From positions 46,716 through 110,715 of the forward strand of contig CAOJSF010000003.1 of assembly GCA_948442695.1 (NCBI GenBank): a DNA stretch of 64,000 bases. The letters run 5' to 3'. This document shows positions 25,742-61,400 of this stretch, in pieces; position 1 is the first letter of the stretch, and each line of letters opens with the position of its first letter. A model generated the notes under the pieces. The model was not told the DNA's origin, did no database searches, and worked only from the letters and a program-made list of their open reading frames with translations. The translations under genes were made by a program, and so were the position numbers. This DNA comes from an uncultured Clostridia bacterium (lineage in GTDB: Bacteria; Bacillota; Clostridia; Christensenellales; UBA1242).

Positions 25742-27877
25742 TTAAAAATAATATTCTGGAATACAGTCATCCAAATTTTTATTTCTTGCCTCTATTTCAA
25801 GTTTCTCGAAATTCTTTTTGATAGTTTCTTCCATAATTGTTATGAATATATCATTTTCTGGATTACCCTCAACTTTAGAATAGACAATTTCCATTGCAAA
25901 GTCAACAAAATCCTCATTCTCTTCTTTGAAATAATCCAAAGGCATTCTCTCAAATTTTGAGATATCTTCGCAAAGCGAAACTAATAAATCATAATCATCC
26001 TTATCAAACTTTTTAAAAACGTCTCTTTCTTGAAATTGTGGCGGAGCATATTGAATGGAAGTCGCATCATTTAAAAACGCTCTCAATACTATTTCAGGGT
26101 CATTTTTCAATCTGTCTGATGCAAACTCAAGCATACTGCCCTTACTTTTTACAGCAGTTTTTACAACCTCAAAATCATCTTGCATTTCATAAGACAGCAC
26201 TTCAAAAAATCTTGAATCTTTGCTCATAAGTGCTAAAGCATATTTTTTAGTGCTTAATATTTCCTGCATTAAATCAGGATCTTTTTCACTATATTCTTGA
26301 AGGAATTTCATATAATCTAAAGAATTTATTTTTCTGATAATTTGAAACTCAGTCCCTTCAAAAATTTTGTCAAACTTTTCCATTACTGCATTGTTTATTT
26401 CTTTTTTATCTTGCGGAATCTCTTGCAATAGTTTTGCATTTTTAAATTTATCTATGACATTTTTGATTTCCACAGAATTTAAAAATTGCTTTTCATCGGT
26501 ATATAAAATTTCTTCAAAAATATCACGATAGACCTTTGCATATTCATTTTTCTCACCTGTCACATAATTCATGTCATCACATTTCTCATCTACAAGATCC
26601 AAAACTTGCTCATAATTCTTGCATTCTTCAAGCCTCAACAAAAATTTTGATTTGTCTGTTTCAAAAGAAACTGATTTGTATACTCTAGAAAGTTTTGTTT
26701 TAAATTTTTCAATAATCATCCTTTTTGAGAAATTGAAATAAACATCTTGCTCATTATCCTCTTTATTTTGGTTTGATTGCCCACCAACCCTATCCAAAAA
26801 CTTTGAAATAGAATCACCCGAAATGAATAATGTGCCAAAATTAAAGAACATTTCAATGTCTTTATTAAGTGTAACAGCCGTAAAGTTTCCACCCCACGTT
26901 GCATCACCTAAGAAAATTCCATCAACGCCATACTTTTCATCTTTAAGATATATTAAATTTGTTTGATGATTGAGATAGGTAAAATCCTTCTTATATTCAT
27001 CCAGACTTTCTTTAATTTCATCTTGCTTACTCTTCAACATCTTTTCTTCAATATCTAATTCTAGTGATCTTTTTTTATATAATTTGTCATCATTTTCATA
27101 ATCACCATTTATCAAAGAGGCCCTAGATTTGTCAAAAGCAATCTTGTCTTGATCCAACCTGTTTTGTTTATATAAAATTTTTTGACGGTCTGAATCTACA
27201 GCCACAGAACAACTTTCAATGCCAACCATAGAAAGAAGTGCTCGCAAATATTCACTTTTGCCAACACAACAACCATAATGATTATTGACTAAATCAACCA
27301 AACTTCTTGTTATACTGTATCCATCTGTTATTCTAGAAGCATTATCTTCATTAAAATAAGTTATATCATTTACAATCTGAAAACATATGAGATATTTTTC
27401 AAGTGGAGAGAGTTGATTATTGTTTCCATTCTCATCAACTATTCCATTGTTTATTTTTTCTGCAATCTCAGACAACTTGATATTTATCTGCACAATTTCT
27501 TCAAAACTTCTTTCTTTTTTATCAAAAATATCTGCAAAATCAAGCAATTCTTTATTAGAACTATAATTATCATAAGAAGAAAATTTAACAGTCTCTTCAA
27601 AAACAAGTTCTCCACCATTTTCATTTATGGCTTGATAATTTTCATTTAACGCTTTAAACTCGTCAGTCTTAAAGAAAAGGTCGCCGTCCGCACACTTAAA
27701 TTTAATCTTCTTTCCACCAAACTCTTTTTCAAAAACCTTTTCTTGAATACAACGCAAAAGCATAGGGTCAATAAGTTGAACTTTTGTCAAAGTCAAAGTG
27801 ACCATTTCATTTCCATGCTTTGCCTTATTGATAATTCTTTCGCCAAAATACTTAAGTTTGTCTTCTTGAGATTGCAT
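25742..27877 (-). CDS. hypothetical protein with a transglutaminase-like Cys-His-Asp core and DUF4116-like C-terminal repeats
   Basis: GCCVGKSEYLRALLSMVGIES is followed later by H..NLIYL...GDATWG. The C-terminal segments are of the form VKTAVKSKGSMLEFASDRLKNDPEIV. I assigned this from motif memory only. Confidence 0.5.
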   Translation of the reverse strand: MQSQEDKLKYFGERIINKAKHGNEMVTLTLTKVQLIDPMLLRCIQEKVFEKEFGGKKIKFKCADGDLFFKTDEFKALNENYQAINENGGELVFEETVKFSSYDNYSSNKELLDFADIFDKKERSFEEIVQINIKLSEIAEKINNGIVDENGNNNQLSPLEKYLICFQIVNDITYFNEDNASRITDGYSITRSLVDLVNNHYGCCVGKSEYLRALLSMVGIESCSVAVDSDRQKILYKQNRLDQDKIAFDKSRASLINGDYENDDKLYKKRSLELDIEEKMLKSKQDEIKESLDEYKKDFTYLNHQTNLIYLKDEKYGVDGIFLGDATWGGNFTAVTLNKDIEMFFNFGTLFISGDSISKFLDRVGGQSNQNKEDNEQDVYFNFSKRMIIEKFKTKLSRVYKSVSFETDKSKFLLRLEECKNYEQVLDLVDEKCDDMNYVTGEKNEYAKVYRDIFEEILYTDEKQFLNSVEIKNVIDKFKNAKLLQEIPQDKKEINNAVMEKFDKIFEGTEFQIIRKINSLDYMKFLQEYSEKDPDLMQEILSTKKYALALMSKDSRFFEVLSYEMQDDFEVVKTAVKSKGSMLEFASDRLKNDPEIVLRAFLNDATSIQYAPPQFQERDVFKKFDKDDYDLLVSLCEDISKFERMPLDYFKEENEDFVDFAMEIVYSKVEGNPENDIFITIMEETIKKNFEKLEIEARNKNLDDCIPEYYF

Positions 27878-28015
27878 CTTCCCTCCCTCAAAAGACTGTC
27901 CGAAACATTCTTTTTATATTTTTATTATACCATAGAAGAAAATATTGTCAAGGCTATGCAACTGATTTAATTTTTCCTCTCTAAAGACAATCACTGGAGA
28001 AGAAAACTTTTGTCT

Positions 28016-29385
28016 TTAAATTTCAAGTTCCTCATCTTCATAAGTTTCTTCACTCTTCTGTGGTTCTAAAATATTGTTATTAATCTTAGGATACTCAGTA
28101 TCCAACGCTTTTTTTTACAGAATCTGCAAGTGGACCATTTATATTTATGGTTTTTAAATTTGTGCAATCTTTAAACGCTTCCTTTTCTATATCTGTCAGA
28201 GTGTTTGGAATGGTGACTTCTGTCAAGTTTTCACAATGTTTTCATAAGCAATATTCTATAATTTTTACTAAGGATGGAATTGTGACTGCTTTCAAATTTT
28301 CACAACTATAAAATGCAAGAGAACCTATCTCTGTCACAGATTCTGGAATAGATATGCTTTTCAAATTTCTACAACACATAAACGCCGCCATTTCTATTTT
28401 TTTCACCGAGTCTGGAATGATAATATTTTCAAAATTATTACAACGCTTAAACGCTCCCTCTCCTATAGTTTCCACTAAATCAGGTATGACAACACTTTTT
28501 AAGTTTTCACAACCAGAAAATGCATGCCTTTCTATGCTTGTCACAAACTTTGGTATTGTGATTTCTTCTAGCATTTTACAATACTCAAATGCTCCATGCT
28601 CTATGCAAGTCACAGCCTCAGGAATATTGACATCTGTCAAACTTTCACAATTTTTGAATGCACCCTTGCCTATGCTTGTCACACTCTCAGGGATTGCAAC
28701 ACTTTTCAAATTTCTGCAATTAAAAAACGCTCCTTCACCTATTGCTTCAACAGAGGATGGAATTGTAATATCTGTCAAACTTTCACAATTTGAAAAAACT
28801 GCTCGCTCTAAACAAGCCAAAGATTTTGAAACGGAAACCTCTTTCAGACTTTTACAATAACTAAATGCATACATTCCTATTGCTTCAACAGAGTCTGGTA
28901 TGGAGATATTTGCCAAATTTTCGCAAAACCAAAATGCTTCATATCCTATTGATTTAACTGAAGATGGAATGTCAATATTCTCTAAACTTTCACAAGTACT
29001 AAAAGCGTCTTCCCCTATGCTCGTCACAGATTCTGGAATGATGACCTCTTTTAAATTTTCACAACTATAAAATGCAAGAGAACCTATCTCTGTCACAGAT
29101 TCTGGAATAGTAATTCTTTTTTAATTTTTACAGTCATAAAATGCACGCTTTCCTATTTCTTCAACAGAGTCTGGTATGATGATGTTTTCCAGTTGAAAAC
29201 AATCCTTAAATGCACATTTATCAATTTCTTTCACTGAATCAGGAATTATGACATTTGTCAAATTTTTACAATCTGAAAACGCATTTGCCCCGATGCTTGT
29301 AATATTCCTCCTTCTATTGTATTATTGTTTATCTTTTCTATATCGTTTAATCTACTTTAATTAGTTTGCCATCTTTAATATCCAT
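28016..29385 (-). pseudogene. BspA-type leucine-rich-repeat surface protein, multiply disrupted
   Basis: The LRR period (IPxSVxxIGxxAFxxCxxLxxV) continues across several lesions. There are two frame changes near the 5' end (about 29300-29350), an in-frame TAA at about 29126-29128, an in-frame TGA at 28242-28244, and a frameshift at the A8 run (28123-28130). The acidic tail ALDTEYPKINNNILEPQKSEETYEDEELEI lies in a further frame. Confidence 0.6.
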
Positions 29386-29415
29386 TTTTTGCCTCCCATA
29401 TTCTACTATACCCTT

Positions 29416-29443
29416 ATTATACTCGGGGGGGGGTAATTGTTAA
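29416..29443 (-). promoter_or_regulatory. promoter whose 16-nt spacer contains a C9 tract
   Basis: On the minus strand: TTAACA (29443-29438), then atta-CCCCCCCCC-gag, then TATAAT (29421-16). The GGGAGG RBS and the ATG at 29385 follow. Confidence 0.55.
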
Positions 29444-29723
29444 GTGCATAATAAAAAATAAGCAATCAAATTATCGTCATTTAAAAGCCTCATTTGATAA
29501 ATCAATAAATTTTGTTGTTTATTTAAAACAATACTTCTTTTATTATCAAAACAAATAAACGCATTGATTCTTTAAAATAAAAAACTCGAAACATAAAGTG
29601 CAAATTCAAAAAAAACCGCTGATAAGACATACAAAAAATTAATAATTAAAAACCTACCACTTTTGATTTCTATGACCTTTAAACAACAAAAAAAGCACCC
29701 ACAAAAAGAGCGCTTTTTTAAAA

Positions 29724-31482: not shown

Positions 31483-32343
31483 TCAACATATTCTGCTCGA
31501 TTGCATTCTTATTTTCTTTGCTGATTTTATTAAACATTTTTTTATAATTTTTTTACCATAACCATACAATCTTCCTTCCTCTTTATTTTTATGGTCATTT
31601 TGCATTAAATTTAAAAGCAATGTATCAATATATTTATCTTGAATATTATTTTTAATCACATTTTCAGTTGCCTTCATTTCGCAATCTTTCATTATCTCGA
31701 TAGCCTTTGAAAAATAATTTCTATCTTCGGCATAAAGTTTGTTTACTTCATGCCTTGCCATAGCCTTATTCATGTCTTTATCAACTGCTTTATCGCCTTT
31801 TTCAATCTTCTCTTTCAGTTTTGAAATTGTTTTTTTGCTCTTGCAAGTTTATTTTCAAGACTTGCTTTTTCTTTTTTCCACTCAGCAACCCTTCTCTCTG
31901 CCTTATATGAATCTTCTGCATAAGAAAATATTCTACATTCATCGCTATAAGAACAAATGAAATCTTTATAAGAGGAGTCAAACTTACTGTCATCATGCCA
32001 GTATCCACCAAAATCAAAAATAAGATCTCCCCCCCCCGCCAACCAGACTGCTAATTTCATTAAATCCATAAGCCGAACATAATAATTGAAACTTTTTATT
32101 TTCTTCTATATATGTTGGGTCATTTGCAAGCAATTTAAAGGCCTCTTGTTTTAAAAAGTTGTTTACAAGCATTTCTTTGTGTAAAATAACTTTTCTCATG
32201 TGAAAATATTCGTCTATTTCTTCGAGAACAGCAAAATCAATCTTTCCATCAAACTTCAAATCTTTTGAGATAACTTCATGATTAACAGGTCTTTCTATAA
32301 TTGTATAATCTTTAAAAAAAACTTTCAACAACATTTCTCGCAA
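31483..32343 (-). pseudogene. hypothetical gene split into three ORFs by a G9 tract and an A7 tract
   Basis: ORFs 32014..32343, 31815..32069 and 31483..31773 join into one frame of about 286 aa if the coding-strand G9 (32029-32037) becomes G8 and the A7 (31830-31836) becomes A8. Confidence 0.5.
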
Positions 32344-32620: not shown

Positions 32621-34474
32621 CTATCTATTTTGAATTTTGTTTTCAATTATGATAAGAGGCACAAACATCTCTTCTGTGAGCGAACCGTGGTGACCTTTAA
32701 ATCTGTTTGAATCTTCGTGCTTTATAAAGTGTTTGTGACTTTTGCAAATTGCGATATAGTCACCCAGAAGTTCTCTTTCACCCTCAATGGACGGGTCTCC
32801 AAAATAACCTTTGCCAATGAGTTCCCCGCTTTTATGAAGTTGAAAATCTTCACCATAATTCTTTATAAACAGTTCTTTAAACTCCTCTTCACAACCCTCT
32901 TTGACCTTGAATGCGGTTGCCCTAGACTCAAGATAAGGAGGACATTTAAGAAGCGAATACAACTTTTCATCCTTATATATATCTATATAATCATCAATTT
33001 CAACCTGACCATGGTCGGCGGTGATGATAAAGAGTGTTTCCTTGCAAATTTTTGACAACTTTTCAATTTGCCTGTTTATATGATTTATGAGATTTTTTGC
33101 TTCTTTTGATGAAACCCCATTGTCATGCATGGTGGCATCTGGCTCTGGGCAATAACAATAAACAAATTGCCTGCCCTCTTCTTTGCAAATTGCTTCAATT
33201 TCCCTAAAATAATCATCAATTTGAGAGCAAATATGCCTGTTCTTTTCTATTCCATCATGCCAGTAAGCAGGGACAACATTGCTGATTTTATAATCTGTTT
33301 TTGCGTCTTTATAGAATGGAATAATGGGCAATCTTTTTGCCATAAAGCCGTCCTCAATCGGTTCACCCGTCTCTGAATCTTTTGAGAGATAAACATCGAC
33401 ATTTTTGCCCAACTCTTCAAAATTTATCGACCAGCCAAACATTCCATGCTCAAGTGGAAAACTGTTTGCAAGAAGTGTTGTTGCGTTTGTTGTCGTCGCA
33501 GGAAAGACAGAGGTGAGTTCTGCCTCAACACTTTTTCTTAAAATGGATGATTTATCTAAATTGATTTCCAAAGGATTTTTGCCCAGTCCGTCAAAGATAA
33601 TAAACACCACATTCTTATAATTCTTTTTCAATGTCTCATCCAAAACTTTCAATGTCTTGTTTTTATTGTCGCAATTTAAGAATGTTGCAAGTGAGGCAGA
33701 AACATTTATTATATTATTATTAAAATCTGGCTTTGTAAACTTGACTGAATCTGCCAAATTTATCTCTTTCCTCTCCTGCTCTGTCATATTTTCCTTCAAT
33801 GATGACTCATCATTTGATTCAGTGTGTTCTATCTTTAATGGGTCAGATTTTTCTATCTTTCCCTTTTTAGATTTTTTCTCTTTCTTGCTTCCATTTTCTT
33901 TCCCTTTTCTTTGAATATGAAAAAGACTTATAAACTTACCCAAAATCAAGATGATTCTTTCGCTGTGAAGCATAGAATATTTTTTGCAATATGCTTTGCC
34001 AAAGATTGTAAGTCCGGCAATGATTGCAGAAACAGCAGAAGCAATCATGACCTCCCAAAATGACCCCGCATAACGGACAATTAAAACCACAGTAATCGAA
34101 GTTCCTGCAGCACCCGACAAAATGCCACAAATATCACCTATCACGTCAGCAGAAACACTTGCAACCTTCTCTCTGTTGTCGATAAGACTTATTGACTCTT
34201 TTGCACCTCTTATCTTTCTTGAAGCCATTGCCCGAAAAGGCTCGTATGATGCCGAGGTAATCGCAACCCCCACCATATCGGCAATGATAGATATTCCGAT
34301 AAAAAACAAAATGACCACCACACTTATCGCAATGCCAGCACCAGTGAGTGCCACCTGACTTATCACGCCAAAGATAAATGAAAGACAAATTGACAGTGCA
34401 AGAACGATGAGAGGCCACCTCCACCAAATTGCGAATTTTGAGGGCTTTGTCTTTTTACCCTTTTTGTTTTCCAT
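32621..34474 (-). CDS. membrane-anchored alkaline-phosphatase-superfamily (phosphodiesterase/nucleotide pyrophosphatase-like) protein
   Basis: The N-terminal roughly 190 aa are polytopic. The C-terminal part has FIIFDGLG, SVFPATTTNATT, ITADHGQ and GHHGSLTEEM. Confidence 0.7.
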   Translation of the reverse strand: MENKKGKKTKPSKFAIWWRWPLIVLALSICLSFIFGVISQVALTGAGIAISVVVILFFIGISIIADMVGVAITSASYEPFRAMASRKIRGAKESISLIDNREKVASVSADVIGDICGILSGAAGTSITVVLIVRYAGSFWEVMIASAVSAIIAGLTIFGKAYCKKYSMLHSERIILILGKFISLFHIQRKGKENGSKKEKKSKKGKIEKSDPLKIEHTESNDESSLKENMTEQERKEINLADSVKFTKPDFNNNIINVSASLATFLNCDNKNKTLKVLDETLKKNYKNVVFIIFDGLGKNPLEINLDKSSILRKSVEAELTSVFPATTTNATTLLANSFPLEHGMFGWSINFEELGKNVDVYLSKDSETGEPIEDGFMAKRLPIIPFYKDAKTDYKISNVVPAYWHDGIEKNRHICSQIDDYFREIEAICKEEGRQFVYCYCPEPDATMHDNGVSSKEAKNLINHINRQIEKLSKICKETLFIITADHGQVEIDDYIDIYKDEKLYSLLKCPPYLESRATAFKVKEGCEEEFKELFIKNYGEDFQLHKSGELIGKGYFGDPSIEGERELLGDYIAICKSHKHFIKHEDSNRFKGHHGSLTEEMFVPLIIIENKIQNR

Positions 34475-34771: not shown

Positions 34772-35363
34772 AAAAAAAGGCATAACAATGTTATACCCCT
34801 TTGAGAAGGCAATCTATTGAGTAAACCTTGCGCCATAGGTTCGGTCGGATTTCCCATTCTCACACTCATCGTCACCGAATAAGCAGTTTCCTTTTAAGCA
34901 AGACATAACACCGAATCGCCACTTAGGTCGCACTATAATCCTCAATCTATCTGCAAAAATGCAACAGTCTAGAAGTTTTCCTTGACAGGCAGATGACTTA
35001 TTAGCCTTTTTTGCAAGTGAAATTTCAATGACAATGACACAAAATGCAAAGCGCTTTACATTTGACATCATTTCCGCCATATCCCGTGTCACTCACTCAA
35101 AGCAGGCTACACTGCACACAACTTTTATCGCAATGCAGGTTCTTCCTAGCAAGTAGATGATTTGACACCCACCTAAACTAGGTCTCCACGAAAAATGGGT
35201 CGCTCGCTGTATGCCATTACAGCACGCCCAAATTTCTTAACTTCCAGCACCAACCCCAGTTTGGGCAACCAAAGCCAGCACCAGAAACTTCACAGATATG
35301 CCCTTCGACGCTATTACTTCGCCCTCCTAAGTCACCATTCTGACTAGAATACTGCACCTTCTA
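34772..35363 (-). ncRNA. candidate large structured ncRNA (about 590 nt), family unassigned
   Basis: An extended -10 (TGgTATAAT, TATAAT at 35376-35371) lies upstream. The terminator is GGUAUAAC-AUU-GUUAUGCC plus U7 (34797-34772). The interior is visibly GC-richer than its flanks. It contains several clean local hairpins, for example GCTGTA-ATGGCA-TACAGC and GCAAAG-CG-CTTTGC. The only ORF, of 92 aa, has a composition atypical for this genome. Confidence 0.6.
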
Positions 35364-35390
35364 TAGTTATATTATACCATAAACATAATA

Positions 35391-46989: not shown

Positions 46990-47196
46990 CTTTTAAAACA
47001 CTTGTGAAATTTTTGCTTTGCTATAAAAAAGAAAAAAGATTTATAGTTTAAATTATTTAGTTTTTCACATTATTTCTAAAAAAAATTTTGAAAGGCAGGA
47101 AAAATAAACCTGCTTTTTTAAACTTTTAAAATTTTATTTTCATAAAAATATTGAAATGTGACTTTATATATGTTACAATTCCTATGGAGAAAAATT

Positions 47197-48192
47197 ATGA
47201 ACGCTTATCTTGAAAAAATTAAAAATTTGTCAACAAGCGAAATCCTTGCAAGCATTGACAATAATTTCTATCAAAACATCACAGATAAAAACGAACTTAA
47301 AAAGTTTGCACAAATATTTGCCTATAAATATTGTGAAGAGCGAAACATATCTCAGGTTTATGTAAGATTTATAAAAATGAATCCAGGAGAAATGGGCGAA
47401 TACGGAAACAGCAACTTTATTGTCGGCATAAATGCCAACTTTTTAAAAGCATTTGAAATCTTTAAAGAAATTCAAAACATTGATTATGTATTTGAGTTTT
47501 GCAATACCATTATTCATGAACTTCGTCATCATGAACAGATTTTATCTTTTGGACATGACATACATCCTGTAGTAAAAAATTTTGCAGTGATTTGCAAAAG
47601 TCTTCCAAATTATGGATTCTTAACAAATTATTACACCTATTCATGCAACCCTATCGAACTTGATGCAAGACACTTTGCTTATAAAACTCTTTCTAATATA
47701 GAGTCTTTTAAGCCATATTTAAAAAGTCAAAGTTATGTAAAAATTGAAACAAACGGACTCAACAACTCATTCCTTAATGTCGTAGAACTTTTAAATGACA
47801 AAGATTTTGTAAAAGGCGGAGAATTTACAAATACAAAAAAATATCAAGCAAACATCAAAAATATAAAATCTTATATTAAAAAACTGGCAAAAGACAATGG
47901 CATAAATATCGTGGGGGGGGGACCTTCTAAAATCTTTACATGGCAACAAAATCTTGAAAACATCAAATTCAGCGGAATTCTCGGTGCTGAAATTGCACCA
48001 GATTTCTTCTCAAATCCTTTCACAAGTGATTTCAATTCACAAGAAGTTGAAGATAAAGTAAACGAGGAAATTGAGATATTTGACGAGATAATTTTTGGTG
48101 ACCCTGCTGACTATGACCAAATGTTGGCATCTGTCAAAACTGCATCAGTTGAAAACAATGATTACTTTGAAATTGAAGTCGAGGCTGAATAA
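47197..48192 (+). CDS. hypothetical HExxH (putative zinc metalloprotease-like) protein carrying an in-frame G9 tract
   Basis: NTIIHELRHHEQ contains HExxH. The likely start is the ATG at 47197. The G9 tract at 47913-47921 encodes VGGG and is in frame. Confidence 0.6.
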   Translation: MNAYLEKIKNLSTSEILASIDNNFYQNITDKNELKKFAQIFAYKYCEERNISQVYVRFIKMNPGEMGEYGNSNFIVGINANFLKAFEIFKEIQNIDYVFEFCNTIIHELRHHEQILSFGHDIHPVVKNFAVICKSLPNYGFLTNYYTYSCNPIELDARHFAYKTLSNIESFKPYLKSQSYVKIETNGLNNSFLNVVELLNDKDFVKGGEFTNTKKYQANIKNIKSYIKKLAKDNGINIVGGGPSKIFTWQQNLENIKFSGILGAEIAPDFFSNPFTSDFNSQEVEDKVNEEIEIFDEIIFGDPADYDQMLASVKTASVENNDYFEIEVEAE

Positions 48193-49419: not shown

Positions 49420-52400
49420 TCACTGATTTGCAAGTTTTTCAAGTTTCTTCTTTCTTCTAATTGTAAGAAGAATGATGATAAGCACGATTAAAATAATCAC
49501 GAATATCAACACACAAACAACAATAATTACAGTGTTGAGTGCCTGTTTGTCAATTTCAAACTTAGCATCCTTACTTACATGCCAGAATAGACCGCTTATT
49601 GAAAGTGATGGTGATGAGTAAGACTTAAAGTGGCTTACATTTTTAAATGTATGTTTTCCGATGATAACCCTTCCGGCAAAAGAATTTTCCTCTGTGCCGA
49701 CAGGCTCCCAGAATCGACCATAGAAGTCAATATCATTTGTCACCTTATAAACGCACTTGCTGTATTTTACTCCATCCTCATTTTCAAGTCCATTGTTGAC
49801 AAGATATGCCATGAGTGCAAAGTCTTTTGCAGAAGCAAGTTTGTATGGTTCTTTATTAGTTCCGTTTCCAACAAACGCTGATGCTCTTGCATCCTCATCA
49901 GTCCAAAGAAGTCTTGTAAAATAGATATTGAATGACATATTATAGTCAAAGAATCTATCCATAAACTCTTTATTGATTTGAAGTATGTTGCTTGAAACAT
50001 ATTTTGAAACATCATACAAAGCACCATCAATAATGAGATATGCTTTTTGATAAGCATAATTTGCAGAAGGATTTATGCGAATGTTGTAAGTGTCGCCATA
50101 TTTAAGCACGATAGGTTTGCCATTTTCAATCCTTTCTGTCTTGTTTGCACCGATTACATAATCAAGGTAGCCCAAACGAGAAGGCTCTTTGCTGTCAACA
50201 GGATTTATGATAAGAGTGTTGAAAGTCATAGAGATATCTTCTTTAGTCACAGGGATTGACAGAAGTAATGAATAATTGTTATCAGCCTCTGTCAAGTCCT
50301 CAACAGCAAATGTATATGTGAATACATAGCAATCATTTTTCTCATCGTATACGCAGTCAAATAGACTGTTGTCAAAGCCATAGCCTCTTGTTTTCTTGAT
50401 GCGAACAACGATTGTGTCGCCAACAAGAGCGGTGAAATTATTTTTATAATCAACTTCTCTGCCGTTTACTTTGACATCAATAATCTTATGAGAAGCGCCT
50501 AAAATTTCGCTTTCAAAGTTGACTAAAATATTTCTTCCTTCAAATACTGCTGTAAGAGAGAGAGGTCTGTCAATGAGATTTGTAAACTCATAGACCATTT
50601 CGCCATTTGAATTTGAACTGCCCTGATAGATTTCTTCAGTCTCATTGTCAATCCAGTAAAGGAAACGATATCCTGTATTTGGCACTGCAACAAGCGAGAG
50701 AAGTTTGTTTATGTCATAGTTGCCATTCAAAATTCCGCCGTCCTGTCTTGCAAATGAGTTTCCTCCATTTGCCAAACCATTGTTGGTATTTTTGATTTTG
50801 ATATTGATTGTTGGGTTATATCTTGCTCTGACAATGTAGTTGCCCATTTCAAGAGTGAGTTTGAAATTGTCATTTTGGGCAATTTCTTCACCGCCCTCAA
50901 ACTGAAGCGTGAATCCTACAAATACATAGCCATCAATCTTTGGTGCTGTAAATGTAAGTTCTGAGCCAACGCCAACTTCAGCATACCACAAATCTTCCTG
51001 TCCGATCCATGGGTCGAAACTATTGATATTTGTTGCAAATGAGCGGATATTCAAATCTTTATTATTGTTTGCAATTGTCACTGGCACAACTTCAACTCTC
51101 ACAGATGCACGATTGAAAATCCAACCAGCATAAAGGGTGAATGTGTCAGTAGCAGGGTCAAAGTTGCCCTCTGCTTTATACTTGCTTCCGTCATAGGTAT
51201 AACCGCTATGTTGCCAGTTCATGACAACTTCGCCATATCTATCAATATACTGTTCTCCATAAGAATTTTCAGCAGTGAAATATCCAGTGAATGTGAAATC
51301 TTTCTTAGATGCGAAAATCTTTCCTTTATCACTTGCTGATAAACTATCAAGATTCCACTCTTCACCATATCTCACCTTTTCGGTCATAGTGACAGAAATG
51401 TCTCTTTCGACATCAACCACAAACTTAACCGAATATTCTTTTGGTTTAACATAGATTACAACTGTTCCGTCAGAAATGACATCTCTGATTGTGAGGTTTG
51501 CTGTTGCAGTGAAGCCTGTTCCAGTCTGAACTGGGTCCTGACTTTCAACCTTTCCTGCAATGACATTTCCGTTGTCCTCACCGCCGATAATGTCATATTT
51601 GATGTTTCCGTCTTCGTCAGTGACGAGAGAATAAGAAATCATCGAACTTACTGTCATGTTTAAAGTTCCGCCAGTCACGATAGACACATTTACATTGTCA
51701 CCACGACTAGGGTTTGAAGAAACAAGTGCTGATTTGGTATCAACAACAATTACACCACCATGAACAGACTTAACTTCTTCGCCTTCATTTGAGAAGATGA
51801 CTTTAAGTTTGTTTTCTCTTGCTGTGAAGAGAACTGTGATTTTAGAATCATTTGTTGCACCCATAACAGCATAGACTTTTTTGTCGTTTATATTAAGTTC
51901 GTTTACAATAATTCCAACACTTGTGGAAATTGATGCAGTAAAGCCTTCTTTAGCCTCAACTTCAAAGTAAAGCACTTCATCAGTGTGAGAAAGAATCTTG
52001 TAATTTGCACCCAGTAAAAGTTTTCCTTGATATTCTTTATAGACATCATTTCCCAGTCTGTCGCCATTTTTGTCAACTACCCAGACACATCCACCAGCAT
52101 CAGTGCCGAGATTGTCAACATAGTTGATAATTGTGCCTGCCTGAACGATGACATCAATTTCGCCTGCCTTAAATACAATCTCAATAGAAGAAATTGTGCT
52201 GTTAAGGTCAAGTGCGATAGCAAACTTGTTTCCATCAAAATGATATTTTTCATCCGTCAGGTCAATTCTGCTTCCGTCAACTAAGACATAGTCAAGTTCA
52301 TATCCAGAAGCAATCTTAAGTGTAATATCAAGATTTAATCCTAAGAAGAACTTAGCATTTGTTGTCCCATTGACTTCAACTGAAATGTTTTCATCAACTT

Positions 52401-55400
52401 GAGAGGCAACAAATCCATTTTTGTTTGTCTCTGCATTGTTTGTTGTCCTTGCAGTAAGAGAGATATCTCTTGCCTTTCTTGCAAAGGTTGCAAAGATTTC
52501 AATAATGCCATTTTCACCATTTCTTTCAAGGGCATCTTTGATTGCACTTGAAACAATGAAATTGATGTTTCCTTCTTTAGAAATAATTTGTTCGTCAATC
52601 ATCCAACCTGCAAACTCAAAGTTTGGAAGAAGTGTGTTTTGACTGAGCACGATTGCACTGCCAAAGTCAACAGTTTGCTCACTATCGCAGGTAATCTGAC
52701 CATACTCTTCCTGTCCTGGCATAACACTTATGTGGAAGTTGAAACTTCTTGCTTTTGCAAGGAATGAAATAGCAAAGTCTTCATCAAATCCTGCAATAGT
52801 TGCAGTGAAATGATAATATTTGTCATCTTCAGAGTAATAGTTGTTTACACTGCCATCAACCACATAGTCAACAACGCCTGTGTTTGGAATGCCAGCAGTA
52901 TATCCATATGCCATAACACCATAAATTACAAAAGTTTCACCGGTTTTCACCATGAAGGTGTCACCACTGAGGTTTATGTTTGTTGTGCCAAAGGTCAGAC
53001 GCATGAAGATATCACTTACATCGCCTATAGTCACTTTGTTGATAGATGGAACTGCGTCAACTGTGATTATCGCATTTGCAGTAAACTCGCTCCAAACAAC
53101 TGTGAGAGTTTTTCCGTCTTCAGAGATTGTTGTTGTAAACTTGCCGTCCCCTCTGAATGAATAACTTGTATCTGAGAAGTTGTAGCCTTTCTTAGCCTTA
53201 TAAACAATCTCGACTTCCTCACCTGTGCGGGCAAGAATGTTTGTTTGAGATTCCACTTCTTCGCCATTTACAAAGGCCTCAAAACTGTCAACATTTGTGT
53301 TGAAAAGTGTGAGAGTGTTTACATTTGGCTCAAGTGTGAAATGTAAAACACCATCTTCAAAGAGATTTTTAATGACAATTCTGCCATTGATTTCTTCAAT
53401 AGTCGCCTTTATTGAATTTTCGTTATAGATAAATCCATAACCTTTCTTTGCGGTGATTTCAAGTGTCAGACTGTCCTCTCCATAGACAAGACCAAAACTT
53501 GTTCCGTTTGCAATTTCCTGACCATTTGTTTTGATAGTCAAGCCTTCGTCAAATGTGATTACAACATCAAAACTCTGACTAATCCAGTCGGCAGTCAAAG
53601 TGATGTGGTAAGCATCATCTTCATCTTTTTCGCCTATTGTAGAGATAGGGTCTCCTTCAGCGTAAGTCTTGCCGTCTTTGTCTTTCCAAAGTGGAGCCCT
53701 TCCTTCCAAAGTTGCACTTGGCATTGATGAAATTGCCTCACCATAAACGCCTTCTACAATCTTAGAAGCCTCATCTTCGATTATTCCCTCTGTTGGGTCA
53801 AAGGTGATGATGTATCTTTCACCCTGCCAGCCAGCCTTGACGACAATTGTCTTGTCACTGTCAAGTTCTTCAAAAATATCATCAATCAATTCTTTAAGTG
53901 AATTTTCATTCAACAATACATCTTCAAAACTATAACCTATGAAATTGTATGTTCCGTCTGTGACTTTGAGACTTGCAAGGTCATCTCTTGTCATAGATTG
54001 AAGATCAAAATAATTGAAAGTCTGAGTAAGAGTGTTTGTATCAACTCTGTTTGTAAATTGTGGCAAATTAGGGTCGATATTGAAAGTGATTTGTATTTGG
54101 TCAAAAGTCACATCAAGTTTAATTTCAGATGCAATTTTTCCAAATCTGATAATTCCATTGTTTTTGCCTATGTCTGTCAAATCTTTGTCTTGAGACTGAC
54201 CTATTGCAAGGTTGTAAGATCTGATTTTATAGCCTCGGACACTTTCCACTTCAATTTGAACATCACTGAAATATTCAATGTATTTTTTGCCGTCAATTTC
54301 TATAATCGAACCATTTGTCGCAGTAAATGTGAGATTTTTTATTTGAAGTCCTGAGATGTTTATCTCATACTTTTCAATTTCCCAAACTGCATAGATAGTA
54401 AGATTAAGATTTTCTTCATTACTATTAAGTGATAAAGCCTTCATCACGCTTTCAAAGTTGTTTGTGTCAAATGTGATATATCCATCACCATCTTTTATCT
54501 TCCAGCCAGAGAACACATATCCCTTTCTTGAAGGCGCTTTGAAAGAGTTGTAAATCTCTTCAACACTTTCATTGTGTGGGAAATCAACAATATATGTCGC
54601 ATTATCTCCTGTTGGCAGAAGTTTGTCATTTACAAACTTGCCACCGCTTACAAGGTCAGTATGCTCTGTTGTCGCATTGACAGTGACAGTGATTGAGAAT
54701 GCTTTGATTGTCCCCTTTACATTATCCTTGACTTTATAGTTTGCACTATCTTCACCCTTAAGAACAATTGTCACAGCCTTATCTTCGCCAGGTTCGCTAG
54801 TCTGATAACCGCCCTTAGCAAGGTCGATTGAAAGGATGTCACCTGTCAAGATAAACTGGTCAATATTGTCACTAAGGTCAGATGGAAGAAGTGTGTTCTC
54901 GTCATACATCTTGACAATTTCAAGACCTGAAAGGTCAAGTTCCAACTGCTCAATATTGAGAGTAACTTCATAGCCTTCACTGTTTAATCCTGTAAAGTTG
55001 TCAGATGTGAATAAGAATTTTATTGTCCTTCTTCCAGCCTTTAAGTATCCGCCGGTAGAAAGGTCATTTTCGTTTAGAATTACAGCCGAAACTTGAACAT
55101 AACCCTTGTTTATGTCATCAGTTACATTTCCGATTGAGAATCTATAACCATTTGTAAGGGCAAAAGCCTGTTCAACTGTGATTCCGTCTTTAATTTCTCC
55201 ATAAGTTAAGACTTTGTTTATTACGTCAAAAGCAACGCTTTCAACTTCAGTGGTCAAGATTTGACCAAATAGATTTGTGCTTGCAAGGACATAGTTGCCT
55301 GCATTTGCACCGCCCAGCATAACATCAAGAAGTTTGATGTTCTGGCCTACAATGATTTGAGAGTATCTTCCTGTGAGGTAAACTTCTTCGCCCTCAACAA

Positions 55401-58400
55401 TTCCCTCTATGACAGCATCATTTCTGCCGATGATTTCATCACGATTGAATCTCTTTGAAACAGAAGTCACATTGAGTGTTTTCTTTTCAATTTTAAGTCT
55501 TGCAAGAGATTTATCTACAAACTCAATTCCAGAATATGTAAATTCTTCAAACGCATTTAATGAAACGCTTAAGTTGTAGTCACCAGCATTTGCACTTATT
55601 GAATCAAAAGTGAAATTCATAAGTTTGATATGATCAAATTTTGCGTCATCTGAAATATAAATCTTTTCGACATTTTCGCCGTTTACTGAAAGATAATATA
55701 GTTCAAACTCAACGCCGTCAAGAAGAGTGTCATTATGATAGAGTGATAAAATGAATTTGTTGTTCTCAACAGTCACAACCTGTCTGTTTACAACAAGAGA
55801 ATTATAAACATATTGTGGTCTTTCTTTGAGTTCTACCTGAAGATTTGCATTTGGTGTTTGAATTTCAAGATAAGCCTCAAATCCCTCTAAGTCAAGTGCA
55901 TAATTGACTCTGTTTGCTTCGTCAATAATTTCTGGATTGATGAGAAGATAACTTCCAACTGCACCGCCATTTTCTCTTCCAAACAAGATTGCAACGCTTT
56001 CACTATTGTCACCATGCTCAATCTCAACCTCATGTCTAAGAACTGGGTCATTTGTGCCCACATATTTTACAAAATTGATTTCATCATTAAAATCTTGAAG
56101 AGAAATAGTATATTTCTTTATTACAATTTGTTTGTCTATTGTCACTTCATTATTTTCAAATTGATAGATGTTTGCAAGTCTAGAGTCAACAATCGCCCTG
56201 ATTGTGTAAGTTCCAGCATTTTTAAGCACTGCAGATTGACCAGAAGAATCAAGAATATTTACATGGAAATTGTATCTGTTGTTGACCGAATTGTCAATCT
56301 TAGGTATGCTTTGCAAATTTACATTATTCAATTTTCCATCATCTTCAATCATTAAATTTACATTTTGGACGCTGTTATTATAAGTATAATCTTCGCTTTC
56401 AAGATAGAAATAAATCATTCTCTTTCTGATTGCAAGTGTTACATCACCGCTCTTAGTGAGAGTTTGGTCACCAAATCCATCATTATAAGTAAGAGTGACA
56501 GAGACAGTGTAAGTATCGCTTAAATCACAACCTGCCATGCCATCTTTATCTTTGATGATAAATGAGCCATTTGCAGAATTGAAACTAAATTCAATTCCCT
56601 TTTCGCTGTTTAGCATTTGTGCATTCAAAGTGCTTCCGTTTGGAGCATCAACTCTAATAAATGATTCAAGTTTTTGCTCTATCTCGCTTTCATTTGCAAA
56701 CAATGAAAGTTCTCCAAATACATCAAATTCAAAATCAGAGAATTGCCATTTTGCAGTGATTGATTCAACTGAGCCTGAATTTTTTACAGTGAAGTAAGTA
56801 TAATCCTCATCAAAAGTGATGTCAAATCTGCTGTTTCTTTGTTGGTTGTAACCATTGAATGTAAGATATTTACCCTCATTGTGAATAGGGTTTAAATACT
56901 GAAGTGTATTGTTTGAAACTGAAACATAGATTGTCTCATTTCTGTTTCCTTCATTGCTCATTCCAGTGTTGTAGTCTACATTGACTTTGACAACATCGGT
57001 GAGAACTGCAGTATAATTGTTTGTTTGGTCATCTGACACAGAAGGTGAAATTGTTGAAACATATCCTGCATCTTTCCAACTATCAAACACCCCTTCAAGG
57101 AGATTCATGTTTGTATTGTTTGTAAGAGTCAAAAGTTTCAATGCATTTGCACGCTCTTGACTGAGTCTGATATTAAGTTTTACTGTAAAAGGATAAAGTG
57201 CCATAACTTCATCATTGACAAAGAGTTTGAGCATGCTTGTTCCATTTCCGACAAATGAGAAGAGAATATTGCCATCAATCTCAACATTGCCTTGATTTGA
57301 CTGAGGCAAATTGTATGCCTTTCCATTAATTTTAAGGTCGCTAAGTTCAAATACATCAGTCTCACCCAGATAATCAGATGTGAGCGATGAATTAAGTCTT
57401 CCATAGTTTGCAACAAGATATGCAAGATTATATGTATATCCTTTTGCAGTATCAATGCCCTTCAAAAGGAATCTTGAATCGCCATGGATGTCAAAGTTTG
57501 CAATGTTCCACTCATAATTGCTTGTTATGTCACCCTCAATTTCAAGACCATAGATATTGAAGATGTCTTTATCTATATTATAGTCCTCGCTTCCAGTATA
57601 GAAACCAGCATCGTTTTTGAGAAGCATAATCTTATTGAATGTATAAGAGAAAGCCTTTCCATTTGCATAGTCACCGCTAAAGTGTCTGTTGCCAAGGTTC
57701 TCATATACTAAAGCATTGATATTATCAAATTTATATGCAGAACCATTTGGGAAGTGAATTGTAAATTTCGCTTTTTCAATAGTAAGCACATTTTCAAGTT
57801 CTACCTTAAAGCCGTCATCTTCTGGCAATACATTTATGATAAGGTTTGCAAAGTTTGCACCCTCTTTGCCTAAGATAGGTCTTTCTGGATTGAGCCTTAA
57901 TGTGATATCTTTTTTATCGTTTGCATTTGCACTTGCATTAAAGTCACCCAAAATTTCAAATCTATTGAAATATTCTTCGGTTTGCCCGATTGTAAATTGT
58001 CCTAGATTTTCATTTTTAGTCTTGTCTTCACCCTTCCAGTCATACTTAAGCATAAATTTGCCGAAGTTGTTGGTTGATGAAGGAGAGAAGTCATTTGATG
58101 CATTGTAAATTGAAGATAAGTTGTGGTCAAAGAAATAAAGTTCGTTCTTAACCATATTGAAGGTGAGAATTCGGCTGATGTCAGAATATTCAATCGAATA
58201 TGCACCCTCATCATTATATTTTGTAAGAGTATCTTTTACTTTGATGATATATTTAATTAAATATCCACCACTTAAATCAAGATTTGAAATATTGAAATCT
58301 TTGATGTTTGCAAAGGTCTTGACCTCGCCACCATTTAAAGTGACCTGATATTCAACCCCAACAATCTGTTCACCATTTTTAAGTATAGGATTGCTTAAAA

Positions 58401-61400
58401 TGTTGATGTTTTCTTCAACATGATTTCCTCTTGCCTTTGCAGTGATGATATTATAATCATTGAGAAGATAGAAGTTTCTTGTCTCTCCAACATCCTCTAC
58501 AAAATTGATTTCACTCTTAGTTGCATTTTCTTTGTCCTTAATCCATGTTGGGACAATAGAGATGTCAGCAGTTGTAAGATATTTTTCTTGTGGTTTAAAC
58601 ATTGATACGGTCTGTCCGCCATTGCTTGATATAGACCAAAGATTGACATCAGCACTATAGCCATATCTCGAAATGACAAGCACGCCATCACTTATTGCAT
58701 CCAAAAGATTTTGTGCAACATTGTTAAACTTGACATGAATGGCAATTCTTCCGTCGATAATCTCGCCGTAGTCATTTGTATCAAGGTTTTCATTCCAGTC
58801 ATATCTATAATAATCATTTTCAGAGTTGTCGAGATAGATGAGATAATCTGCCTCTTCTCTGATAGTGTTGATAAAGATATTGTCATCACCTGAATTTACT
58901 GCAAATCTATATTCATCCTTGATGAAAGAAAGGAAGATTTCAGGAGTGATTGTGATTTTGTTTGCCTCACCCTGTTCTGACCAAACATAACCATCTTTTA
59001 CCTCATCTTGAGAAAGAGAGAAGCCTTTTGCATAATAGCCAAATATGGTTTGACCAGAAAGAGTTGTTCCGCTTATTACATAAGTTGCAAGTCCGTTTTT
59101 GTGATTTGGGACAGGAGTTGTAGTAAAGTAAATTGTGTCACCGATTGAAAGACCTGTCTTTCCAGTAGTAGAACTGCTTACAATAGTAGTTTCATCAATG
59201 ATTGCACTATAAGAAATTATCTGCCACCTGCAAATAAGTTCTACCTCTGCCTTTCTTTGAAGCATACTTTCAGCAAGACCATTCCATGCCTGGAAACTGT
59301 CACCACTGATGTTGTTGATAATTATTCCATCAGAGTTTTTAGCCTGCTTAAAGAGTTCATCCCAGCCTTGTGCAGAAATTGAATATCTCATGTTGTCATT
59401 GTCAACATTTCCAAAGTAAACCATTGTTCCGTTTACTGTCACACCATTTGGGATATAACCATTAAATGAATATCCTAAGTTGTAGAAAGCATATTTGCTT
59501 AAAGAAATTGATTCATTATATTTGAAGTTTTGTCCAGCAAAAGTGCGGTTGATTGTGCCGTCCTCGGCATCAACAAGCACTCTGTTTTCATCATTAAGTC
59601 TACTGTCACTATTTTCATACAATTTGCCATGTTCGGCAGTGCCGGCATTATATTTTGCTGACACAGTTCTTCTTCCAACAAGTGCCGCAACATCGTTGCT
59701 CACATAAGTGCCTTCCTTATCAGCACTCATCTGGGCAAGCCCGCTTACAAACTCGCCGTCTGTCAAGAATCCATTGAAGTTTCCATTCGAGTCAACATTG
59801 ATTGATTTGCCATTTTGCAGATACCAACCGAGAAGATAGAATTGAGAATGAATTGATATGCTTGCCAGTTGAGTTGAACCATTTGATAATGAAAGTGCTC
59901 CGTCTGCTCCGATTTTATATGTAAGGTTTTCAATTGAATAAGCAAGAATAGCCTTGTCCCCAACGCCTAAATACCCCTCTTCGTCAAGCACGTGAACCTT
60001 GTCAATCAAGAGACTCACTGTGCGATATTCAAAGAAGATTTTGATTGTTGTATCATAGCCACCCAGAGAAAGTTCAAAATTGCCTTCCGCTGTTCCTGGA
60101 TTTGCAGGCTCTACAAGAGAACTGTTTGTATAACCCTCTTTTTCCCAACTTTCAGGGTTGCCACTGTTGTTAAATCCAACCTTAAGTTTTCCGTCCTGAT
60201 AAAGTTCATAGCCTGCATATGAAAGTGCGCCACGGCCTACATCAGAAAGCATGAATGAGAAGTTGTACTTTCCGCCACCTGCAAGAATGCTAGGAAGTTG
60301 TGGTGAAGAAAATCCAAAACTTACCTGACTGAAATAGTTGTCAGCAAATTCTGCCATAATCTGGTCTACACTGTCACTAGGTATAACTGCACTATCACCC
60401 TCAACCTGAGAAACAGGCGTGAGATTGCTTCCCGCATAATACTCAACTTTTATGTCATAAGCCCTTTCTTTATAGTATACATCAACCACATACAAAGGTG
60501 CTTCTTCATGCGTGAATGCCTTTTTAAACAGCATATTTCCTGCTGGAGAAATATAACTTGTGTTGTAATAAAGGTCAGAATATTTTTCGCCACTGTCTAT
60601 CATTGAATAAACGGCAGGGTCTCTGCTGTATTGAGGAGGATCTGTCCCCTCAAGAAGATCTGAAATCACCACCTTATAAGCCTGATATTTTCCGCTTTTC
60701 TTTGATGAAATCACTCCTGTTGCACTCATTCCAAAAAGTTCACCTGTCACATTCTGGAAATAAGAAGAGTTGTTTATGCTTACGCCAACCCCAGTCATAT
60801 CATCAAGTGCTTCACGATTATCAACATCACCTTTATAAAGATTGATTGCAATCTTTGTCTTAGGTGCACCGATATAAGGTCTAAATGTATTTGCATATTC
60901 TTTTACATTGTTTAAGTTTACATCCCATTTATCAAAGAAGTTGTTTTCTGGATCCACCCCTTCAAACACACTGCTTGCGTCACTTGAAGGAGAGGTCTTG
61001 TATGTAGAGAAGACTGATTCATCCGCGCCACCATTTGACAACATGAAATTGTCTGTCTCTATATTGAGAAGAAATCTTCCGATTGTCTCAGATGAAATCT
61101 TCAGTTCGATGTCCTCGCCTAACCTAGTCATCAAGAAAAAGTTGGTTGTTCCATCACTTTCAAAAATGTCATCATTGTAATATAATTCAGGATACACTTT
61201 ATTTCCATTCTCATCAAGAAAAGTATCAAATGCCTTCTCGTGTTGTCTGCCTTTGGCATAGCCGATATAATTTAAAGGATATTGCCCTATAAAGAATCCA
61301 TATTCATCTAAATTGTCTACATACTCATCATAATATTCATGTTCTACTTTATTATTTAACTTAACTCCATTATAATCTAGAATTTCGCCGTTTTCATTTA

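Follow-up and report, generated by a model that had tools for sequence, protein, structure and literature searches.

The locus lies on the minus strand of the window, by which is meant the whole 64,000-nt stretch of DNA that was analysed and whose GC content is 32.7%. The rpsF-ssb-rpsR-rpmE cluster ends there in a predicted intrinsic terminator and is followed in turn by a promoter-like site built around a poly-C tract (T1), the remnant of a BspA-type LRR gene, a DUF4116 gene and bipA (Table 1). The terminator is predicted to insulate T1 from read-through, and the LRR gene is an insertion between rpmE and the DUF4116 gene. The rpmE-bipA interval is an accessory island, with a gene content that varies from one species to the next. 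At L009:351-9704, eight tblastn segments within 9.7 kb of this interval mark an array of DUF4116 paralogues, and a single DUF4116 paralogue lies immediately 3' of rpmE at L008:1790-3952, while L010 carries, 140 nt past rpmE, a C9-spacer promoter predicted to drive an unrelated 136-aa gene. Elsewhere in the window, a full-length OLE (ornate large extremophilic) RNA (34790-35376, minus strand; Rfam RF01071, 396 bits, E=7e-113) is located between a phosphodiesterase-family gene and the next gene upstream, a find in keeping with a Firmicute, and an exceptionally long ORF (>4855 aa; 49420-63987, minus strand) runs off the window end; this ORF reaches 4914 aa in L093, has only a faint Flg_new_2 match and probably encodes a huge surface or adhesin-like protein.

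Table 1. Features of the window referred to in the text, with predicted elements named by their sequence-based assignment.
Feature	Position	Strand	Remarks
Intrinsic terminator of the upstream rpsF-ssb-rpsR-rpmE cluster	29689..29719	-	12-pair stem and T-run; genes by Pfam marks
-35 hexamer TTAACA	29438..29443	-	5/6 match to TTGACA
Promoter spacer, 16 nt, ATTA-CCCCCCCCC-GAG	29422..29437	-	sequence and promoter scan
T1, poly-C tract, C9 in the window	29425..29433	-	core of the 16-nt spacer
-10 hexamer TATAAT	29416..29421	-	6/6 match
Shine-Dalgarno GGGAGG	29392..29397	-	6 nt 5' of ATG (29385)
Remnant start of the LRR gene, ATG and 11 codons (MDIKDGKLIKVD), then TAA 29349-29347	29347..29385	-	identical in all assemblies
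LRR frame lesion 1	near 29350	-	1 nt missing, GATT^AAAC
BspA-type LRR pseudogene body	28095..29346	-	longest open piece 29096-28242; Pfam LRR_5 (PF13306)
LRR frame lesion 2	near 29305-29302	-	AT duplication (2 nt)
LRR in-frame stop TAA	29123-29121	-	
LRR-unit deletion polymorphism, 759 nt = 11 x 69 nt, in-frame	28275..29034	-	between two copies of the unit ESVTEIGSLAFYSCENLK
LRR in-frame stop TGA	28244-28242	-	
Promoter of the next gene (DUF4116), TTGACA-16-TGgTATAAT	27924..27951	-	perfect extended -10
DUF4116 gene	25742..27877	-	downstream of the LRR pseudogene; bipA next
T2, G9 tract in a gene of no known family (32343..31815)	32029..32037	-	G9 splits the ORF, G8 fuses it
T3, G9, in frame (GGG, Gly-Gly-Gly) in an intact 331-aa gene, 47197-48192	47913..47921	+	

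The T1 site reads ...gcacTTAACAattaCCCCCCCCCgagTATAATaagggtatagtagaatatGGGAGGcaaaaaATG... on the minus strand, and a promoter scan returned it as an 11/12 match with a 16-nt spacer. A homopolymer is thus found between recognisable -35 and -10 hexamers, and T1 is predicted to form the spacer of a strong sigma-A-type promoter; the preliminary description, which had read C9 as the core of a 16-nt spacer between TTAACA and TATAAT on this strand, is confirmed by both the coordinates and the scan. It had also placed this promoter directly 5' of the RBS and ATG of an LRR gene, which holds for the RBS and the ATG themselves, but the ATG opens an ORF of only 12 codons. With regard to the tract, runs of G or C in the window comprise C4 (50), C5 (5) and C9 (1) together with G4 (9) and G9 (2), and those of length 6-8 are missing altogether. 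Under a first-order Markov model of the window about 0.022 runs of at least nine G or C are expected versus three observed (T1, T2 and T3), a discrepancy by which a chance origin of C9 is ruled out and which bears out the earlier remark that a G/C 9-mer is very unexpected in DNA of about 30% GC. With a length at which hypermutability is expected, and with its over-representation, T1 has the properties of tracts in porA/opc-type switches.

It may be asked whether C9 acts in RNA instead, in a transcript starting further upstream, as an anti-Shine-Dalgarno partner of GGGAGG, given that the C-rich and G-rich segments are only 27 nt apart. The probability of this reading is negligible: a strong terminator lies just upstream, half of the promoter family described below has G-tracts, which are unable to pair with a Shine-Dalgarno sequence, and the predicted fold leaves the C-tract unpaired. 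The hairpin was rejected, the fold being no better than shuffles (z=-0.12).

What lies downstream of T1 is clearly of LRR type, as a 284-aa open piece matches PF13306 (LRR_5) with E=3.2e-112. However, the LRR body sits in frames other than that of the ATG and contains in-frame stops, and the gene has no intact frame, a full reading requiring two frame repairs and two stop read-throughs. Restoring a T in GATT^AAAC and removing the AT duplication near 29305 yields a plausible N-terminus, ...KVDLNDIEKINNNTIEGGITSIGANAFSDC..., with both stops persisting. The lesions are real and not sequencing errors, because all assemblies of the species, made independently of one another, show them in the same form; these assemblies come from seven samples of a nearly clonal population, and the apparent fixation of the lesions may simply reflect this low diversity. 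Rescue by an alternative genetic code was likewise discarded, as reading TGA as Trp mends only one of the four lesions and table 11 already gives the window an uninterrupted ORF of more than 4855 aa. A search for a close intact orthologue with the repaired protein gave, as the best of 7228 LRR_5 hits, a generic match of about 50% identity (<=51%). Since the lesions are shared and no close intact orthologue was found, the gene is best described as a lineage-specific pseudogene, a state common to all seven samples. Moreover, inspection by eye of the repaired N-terminus (MDIKDGKLIKVDLNDIEKINNNTIEGGITSIG...) for a signal peptide found no hydrophobic segment, and hence no sign of export or anchoring.

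These observations bear directly on the reading in which the organism uses the tract to phase-vary a BspA-type LRR surface protein that is still functional. Such a reading draws on the promoter, RBS and ATG being in place, on LRR units that still score E=3e-112 against PF13306 and on a sister species that has the same arrangement with an intact gene, and it is nevertheless very improbable in view of a 12-codon ORF, of frame lesions and stops, two of each, common to all assemblies, of a repaired N-terminus devoid of a signal peptide and of the lack of an intact orthologue among the 7228 hits. Neither the functional LRR gene nor the surface protein that the preliminary description had assigned to this locus is thus sustained, the former being contradicted by the 12-codon ORF, the two frame lesions, the TAA and the TGA, and the latter finding no support in a repaired protein without a signal peptide.

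Alternatively, T1 could have acquired a new target and remain in use: its transcript would cross the dead LRR array, reach the DUF4116 gene and contribute variably to expression there. Between 29416 and 27877 on the minus strand the sole terminator-like site is a weak one (28817-28801), which lies within the deletable 759-nt segment and is missing from the short haplotype, so that transcription could in principle continue. Such read-through is possible but unnecessary, because the DUF4116 gene has its own strong promoter, a perfect extended -10 site at 27951-27924, and can be regarded as independent of T1; in addition, the -35 and upstream element of T1 look degraded, and 0.7-1.5 kb of untranslated RNA would be exposed to Rho termination. 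We consider read-through from T1 unlikely, though not far-fetched.

Variation in tract length was assessed in metagenome assemblies of independent origin, which were recovered by exact-protein look-ups on flanking genes and match the window at 99.6-100% identity; tract alleles in this set are assembly consensus calls at a coverage of 1.9-9x. T1 is C9 in four cases, namely the window, ERZ13657893 (L001/L088), ERZ13657768 (L006) and SRR14038236 (L090), and C8 in three, ERZ14867582 (L002), ERZ14864651 (L003) and SRR15604614 (L004), with identical flanks in C8 and C9 assemblies, so that the tract varies between strains. The heterogeneity across assemblies that had been proposed as a check is therefore present, as C8 versus C9, and a C10 (17-nt) allele of T1 was seen in none of the seven samples. 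L002 has no SNPs over 7.2 kb relative to the window, yet its T1 differs. The 759-nt LRR segment is kept in the window and L002 and missing in L001, L003, L004 and L090; both T1 alleles thus occur on the long as well as on the short LRR-array haplotype, and at least one of these two characters must have changed more than once. A scan of JGI metagenomes for T1 with a variable tract returned none, and the family pattern recovered there a single locus, L106.

T2 is G8 in ERZ13657893 (L001), giving one 172-aa ORF, and G9 in the window, L002 and L104, where the ORF is split into 109 aa and 84 aa; it looks like a classic intragenic phase-variable tract that would be OFF in the window. T3 is G9 in five of five covering assemblies, including ERZ14864651, in which T1 is C8. 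Pfam and NCBIfam searches with the T2 gene, the T3 gene and several tract-controlled genes found no family, and the T3 product contains an HELRH (HExxH-like) motif. Additional differences among these near-identical strains were noted. In L002 an 8-nt deletion cuts the phosphodiesterase-family membrane protein (32621-34474, minus strand; Pfam Phosphodiest) from 617 to 560 aa, and the same gene has a 3-nt ACA-repeat indel in L001 (sites ~32839 and ~33475 for the L002/L001 changes). An intergenic T5/T6 difference at 47061 (plus strand), between the window and L093/L094, is the sole A/T-run polymorphism.

Short-read chemistry is known to handle G/C homopolymers poorly, and it may be objected that the tract is static, with C8 versus C9 and G8 versus G9 arising from mistakes in the sequencing or assembly of such homopolymers in low-coverage short-read metagenomes. 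The coverage of 1.9-9x, the error-prone nature of G/C homopolymers in short reads and a Logan contig (L095) that ends 3 nt into T3 are all in keeping with this objection, as is the comparison of T1 with T3 alone, which is not significant (3/6 vs 0/4, p=0.2). As a control, A/T 7- and 8-mers differed in 0 of 109 comparisons versus 4 of 13 for G/C 9-mers (Fisher p=8.1e-5), a contrast that does not fully exclude an artefact because Illumina chemistry makes more errors in poly-G/C than in poly-A/T. On the other hand, T3, a tract of equal length and composition, is G9 throughout, even in the assembly where T1 is C8. The two variable tracts shift in opposite directions (T1=9 and T2=8 in L001; T1=8 and T2=9 in L002), which excludes a sample-wide contraction bias. 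Furthermore, C8 recurs in three independent samples and two assembly pipelines, G8 at T2 restores a full-length ORF, which is unexpected of random error, related promoters vary too (C9/C10, G8/G9), and errors would leave the existence of the tracts and their placement in promoter spacers unexplained. An entirely static tract is accordingly judged to be clearly unlikely, and the length differences are better accounted for by real variation, which may arise by replication slippage.

To place T1 in its lineage, BipA-anchored loci were collected from GTDB representative genomes (1.46 Mb, 80 sister species); the same genomes gave no match to the neighbouring DUF4116 gene. By these loci the window falls among MAGs of uncultured gut Clostridia, and the nearest sister species have 95-96% BipA identity, and two of three are labelled MGBC. 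G/C runs in these loci number 196 of length 5, 12 of length 6, three of length 7, two of length 8, seven of length 9 and one of length 10. Eight of the 13 runs of at least 7 sit between a perfect TTGACA (TTGACT in L013) and a TAnAAT-type -10, although such spacers make up only 3.3% of the sister sequence (p=1.7e-9 for the enrichment). The sequences point to a promoter family with a common layout, consisting of an A-rich upstream stretch, TTGACA, 3-8 nt, the G/C tract, 0-3 nt and TAnAAT. The nearest relatives of T1 read TTGACAatt-C9-gagTATAAT (L037a, L037b, L107), others have a C10 version (L108, L109) or an interrupted C8A version (L106). In the family alignment T1 deviates by an imperfect -35 (TTAACA), the sole imperfect one in that alignment (L013 being given elsewhere as TTGACT), by one extra spacer base and by the absence of the A-rich upstream element. 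In several members GGGTAT follows the -10, and a sigma-B-like reading of this motif was set aside when inspection by eye found no GTTTAA-type -35 at the right distance.

The predicted targets of the family include a lipoprotein (L008), a Listeria-Bacteroides-repeat (Flg_new) surface protein (L013), signal-peptide proteins (L027 and L036) and tandem paralogues of no assigned function (L037). In L025 the tract promoter precedes an intact gene for a 458-aa protein that combines LRR_5 repeats (E=1e-30) with a signal or anchor at its N-terminus, and this promoter type, TTGACAaaaaagtc-G(n)-TAATAT, is 100% conserved ahead of orthologues that are only 75% identical. Eight assemblies have G8 in this promoter, which gives a 16-nt spacer, and one (L114) has G9, which gives 17 nt. 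A tract-spacer promoter predicted to drive a BspA-LRR surface protein is therefore a feature of the lineage and not of T1; likewise, a switch placed ahead of a functional gene is found in sister species (L008, L013, and L025 with its orthologues) and not here. The idea of phase variation of surface proteins through a tract in the promoter spacer, which the preliminary description had put forward for this site, thus gains from the identical architecture ahead of sister-species surface proteins and fails at T1 itself, where the cargo is dead. Three sister species also share an orthologous intragenic G-tract (L043:17943-17950, L067:17906-17914 and L074:17994-18002) in a gene with an IDPIDGT motif in its N-terminal part; G9 gives one ORF of ~372 aa, and G8, as in L043, gives two of 212 and 181 aa.

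The spacing of ordinary promoters provides a reference for this family. Among strong promoters of the lineage, a 17-nt spacer is found at 109 sites, whereas any other length between 12 and 22 nt accounts for 28-46, and a reversed-sequence control gives 10-20 sites at every spacer length, which upholds the earlier statement that one extra C would bring T1 to the optimal 17 nt. T1 itself has 16 nt with C9 and 15 nt with C8. Almost all tract-bearing promoters (T1, L008, L010, L013, L025, L027, L036, L037, L106-L117) likewise have 15-16 nt, and 17 nt is seen only in the related LRR promoter of L114; these totals come from differing partitions between tract and non-tract bases. Such clustering is unexpected if tract promoters are often ON, and it may mean either that the genes concerned are low or OFF in most cells or that 15-16 nt is the working state. 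The notion that a G/C tract twists the helix so that 15 nt is equivalent to 17 nt was rejected by reasoning from textbook twist values.

The second option, in which the G/C tract is itself a promoter element, as a regulator site or a DNA-structural feature, and 15-16 nt is the working state and not a slippage OFF state, takes its appeal from the clustering of totals at 15-16 nt through partitions as different as 6+9, 8+7, 7+8 and 8+8, and from L106, which stays at 15 nt despite its interrupted tract (C8A). It nonetheless has to contend with G-tracts and C-tracts that both occur on the coding strand and at differing offsets from the -10, with lengths that vary within species, with the existence of one 17-nt allele and with the ordinary promoters of the lineage, among which neither 15 nor 16 nt is in excess. 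Besides, the switching of reading frames by equally long intragenic tracts speaks for a general slippage system. We regard a role of the tract as an element in its own right as decidedly improbable, and slippage within the spacer remains the preferred reading.

Taken together, it seems probable that T1 is a genuine promoter tract of the slipped-strand type, belongs to a family spread across the lineage and now persists as a relic before a pseudogene. In the proposed mechanism, 8-9 bases of the 15-16-nt spacer would come from the poly-C run, and replication that adds or drops one C would change the distance between the -35 and -10 boxes and, with it, promoter strength. Across this uncultured low-GC gut Clostridia lineage, the tract family would control accessory genes, many of them for surface proteins. 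At T1 the LRR cargo appears to have been inactivated by at least four lesions common to all sampled strains, and the promoter itself appears to be drifting, having acquired TTAACA and an extra spacer base and lost the A-rich upstream element. The tract probably still mutates (C8/C9) but would switch at most a non-coding or read-through transcript, since its cargo is dead and its promoter is drifting. The combination of degraded promoter and dead cargo suggests a decaying relic, a term that assumes no function for the 12-codon ORF or the transcript. As for the lineage as a whole, chances are about even that these Clostridia, known as Christensenellales-like MAGs from the guts of mouse, human, rabbit and deer, run a poly-G/C "phasome" in the manner of Campylobacter or Neisseria, its main class being, unusually, a conserved tract-spacer promoter module that drives lipoproteins, repeat surface proteins and BspA-LRR proteins, rests 1-2 bases below 17 nt and is low or OFF in most cells and ON in a minority, with T1 as a decaying member.

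The literature retrieved describes this mechanism for Neisseria, Bordetella, Treponema, Campylobacter and others, and contained no report of a repeat-tract switch for Christensenellales-like gut Clostridia; in it, phase variation of gut commensals has been studied chiefly via invertible promoters and methylation switches, and repeat-tract switches are mostly those of Gram-negative pathogens and mycoplasmas. If the family is functional, single-base slippage would let uncultured gut Firmicutes vary the surface encoded by their BspA-LRR, Listeria-Bacteroides-repeat and lipoprotein genes, a variation that would be hidden by assembly consensus and misread by gene callers as frameshifts or pseudogenes. 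G/C 7- to 10-mers between TTGACA and TAnAAT offer a signature by which MAGs can be searched. In this regard, T1 matters chiefly as an entry point and as an example of a switch after gene death, whereas the family represents the more valuable lead.

Several known systems can be compared with T1 and its relatives. In Mycoplasma hyorhinis vlp and Haemophilus influenzae hif, a repeat tract in the -35/-10 spacer underlies ON/OFF switching of surface proteins; unlike T1, these promoters use poly-A or TA dinucleotide repeats and not G/C homopolymers. The fim tract of Bordetella pertussis lies between an activator site and the -10, and not in a plain -35/-10 spacer. Both this tract and that of Treponema pallidum tpr are homopolymeric G/C tracts in the promoter region, as at T1, in lineages unrelated to the present one. 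The tpr poly-G and fim poly-C promoter-region tracts are reported to modulate transcription of surface-protein genes (PMC7864442, PMC1891110).

At the level of the genome, the resemblance is to the poly-G/C phasome of Campylobacter jejuni, which, like this lineage, combines a low-GC (~30%) genome otherwise depleted of G/C runs with several tracts of modal length 9, both intragenic and intergenic and some of them on pseudogenes. Campylobacter jejuni is without mismatch repair. Unlike in Campylobacter, where the tracts are mostly in ORFs, those of the sister loci are mostly (8/13) in promoter spacers. Pseudogenes with tracts in C. jejuni include cj0046 and cj0565, and a bias towards insertions at G8 and deletions at G11 or longer holds its tracts at G9-G10 (PMC8355987).

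The closest parallel at the level of the promoter is provided by Neisseria meningitidis porA (poly-G) and opc (poly-C), whose spacers between -35 and -10 contain a G/C homopolymer and change in length by one-base slippage. Expression from porA is full with 11G, ~2-fold lower with 10G and ~13-fold lower with 9G (PMC3639595). The 15- and 16-nt spacers of T1 fall in the same range, below an optimum of 17, and T1 agrees with switches of this type in where the tract lies, in its over-representation and in its variation between strains, and at most in part in how its spacing relates to the optimum. It differs in that its host belongs to Gram-positive-type uncultured gut Clostridia and not to the proteobacterial pathogens, its cargo is a pseudogene and its alleles stop at 16 nt. 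By analogy, T1 would have worked as a porA/opc-type promoter-spacer homopolymer switch, within a genome whose set of tracts may be likened to the Campylobacter phasome.
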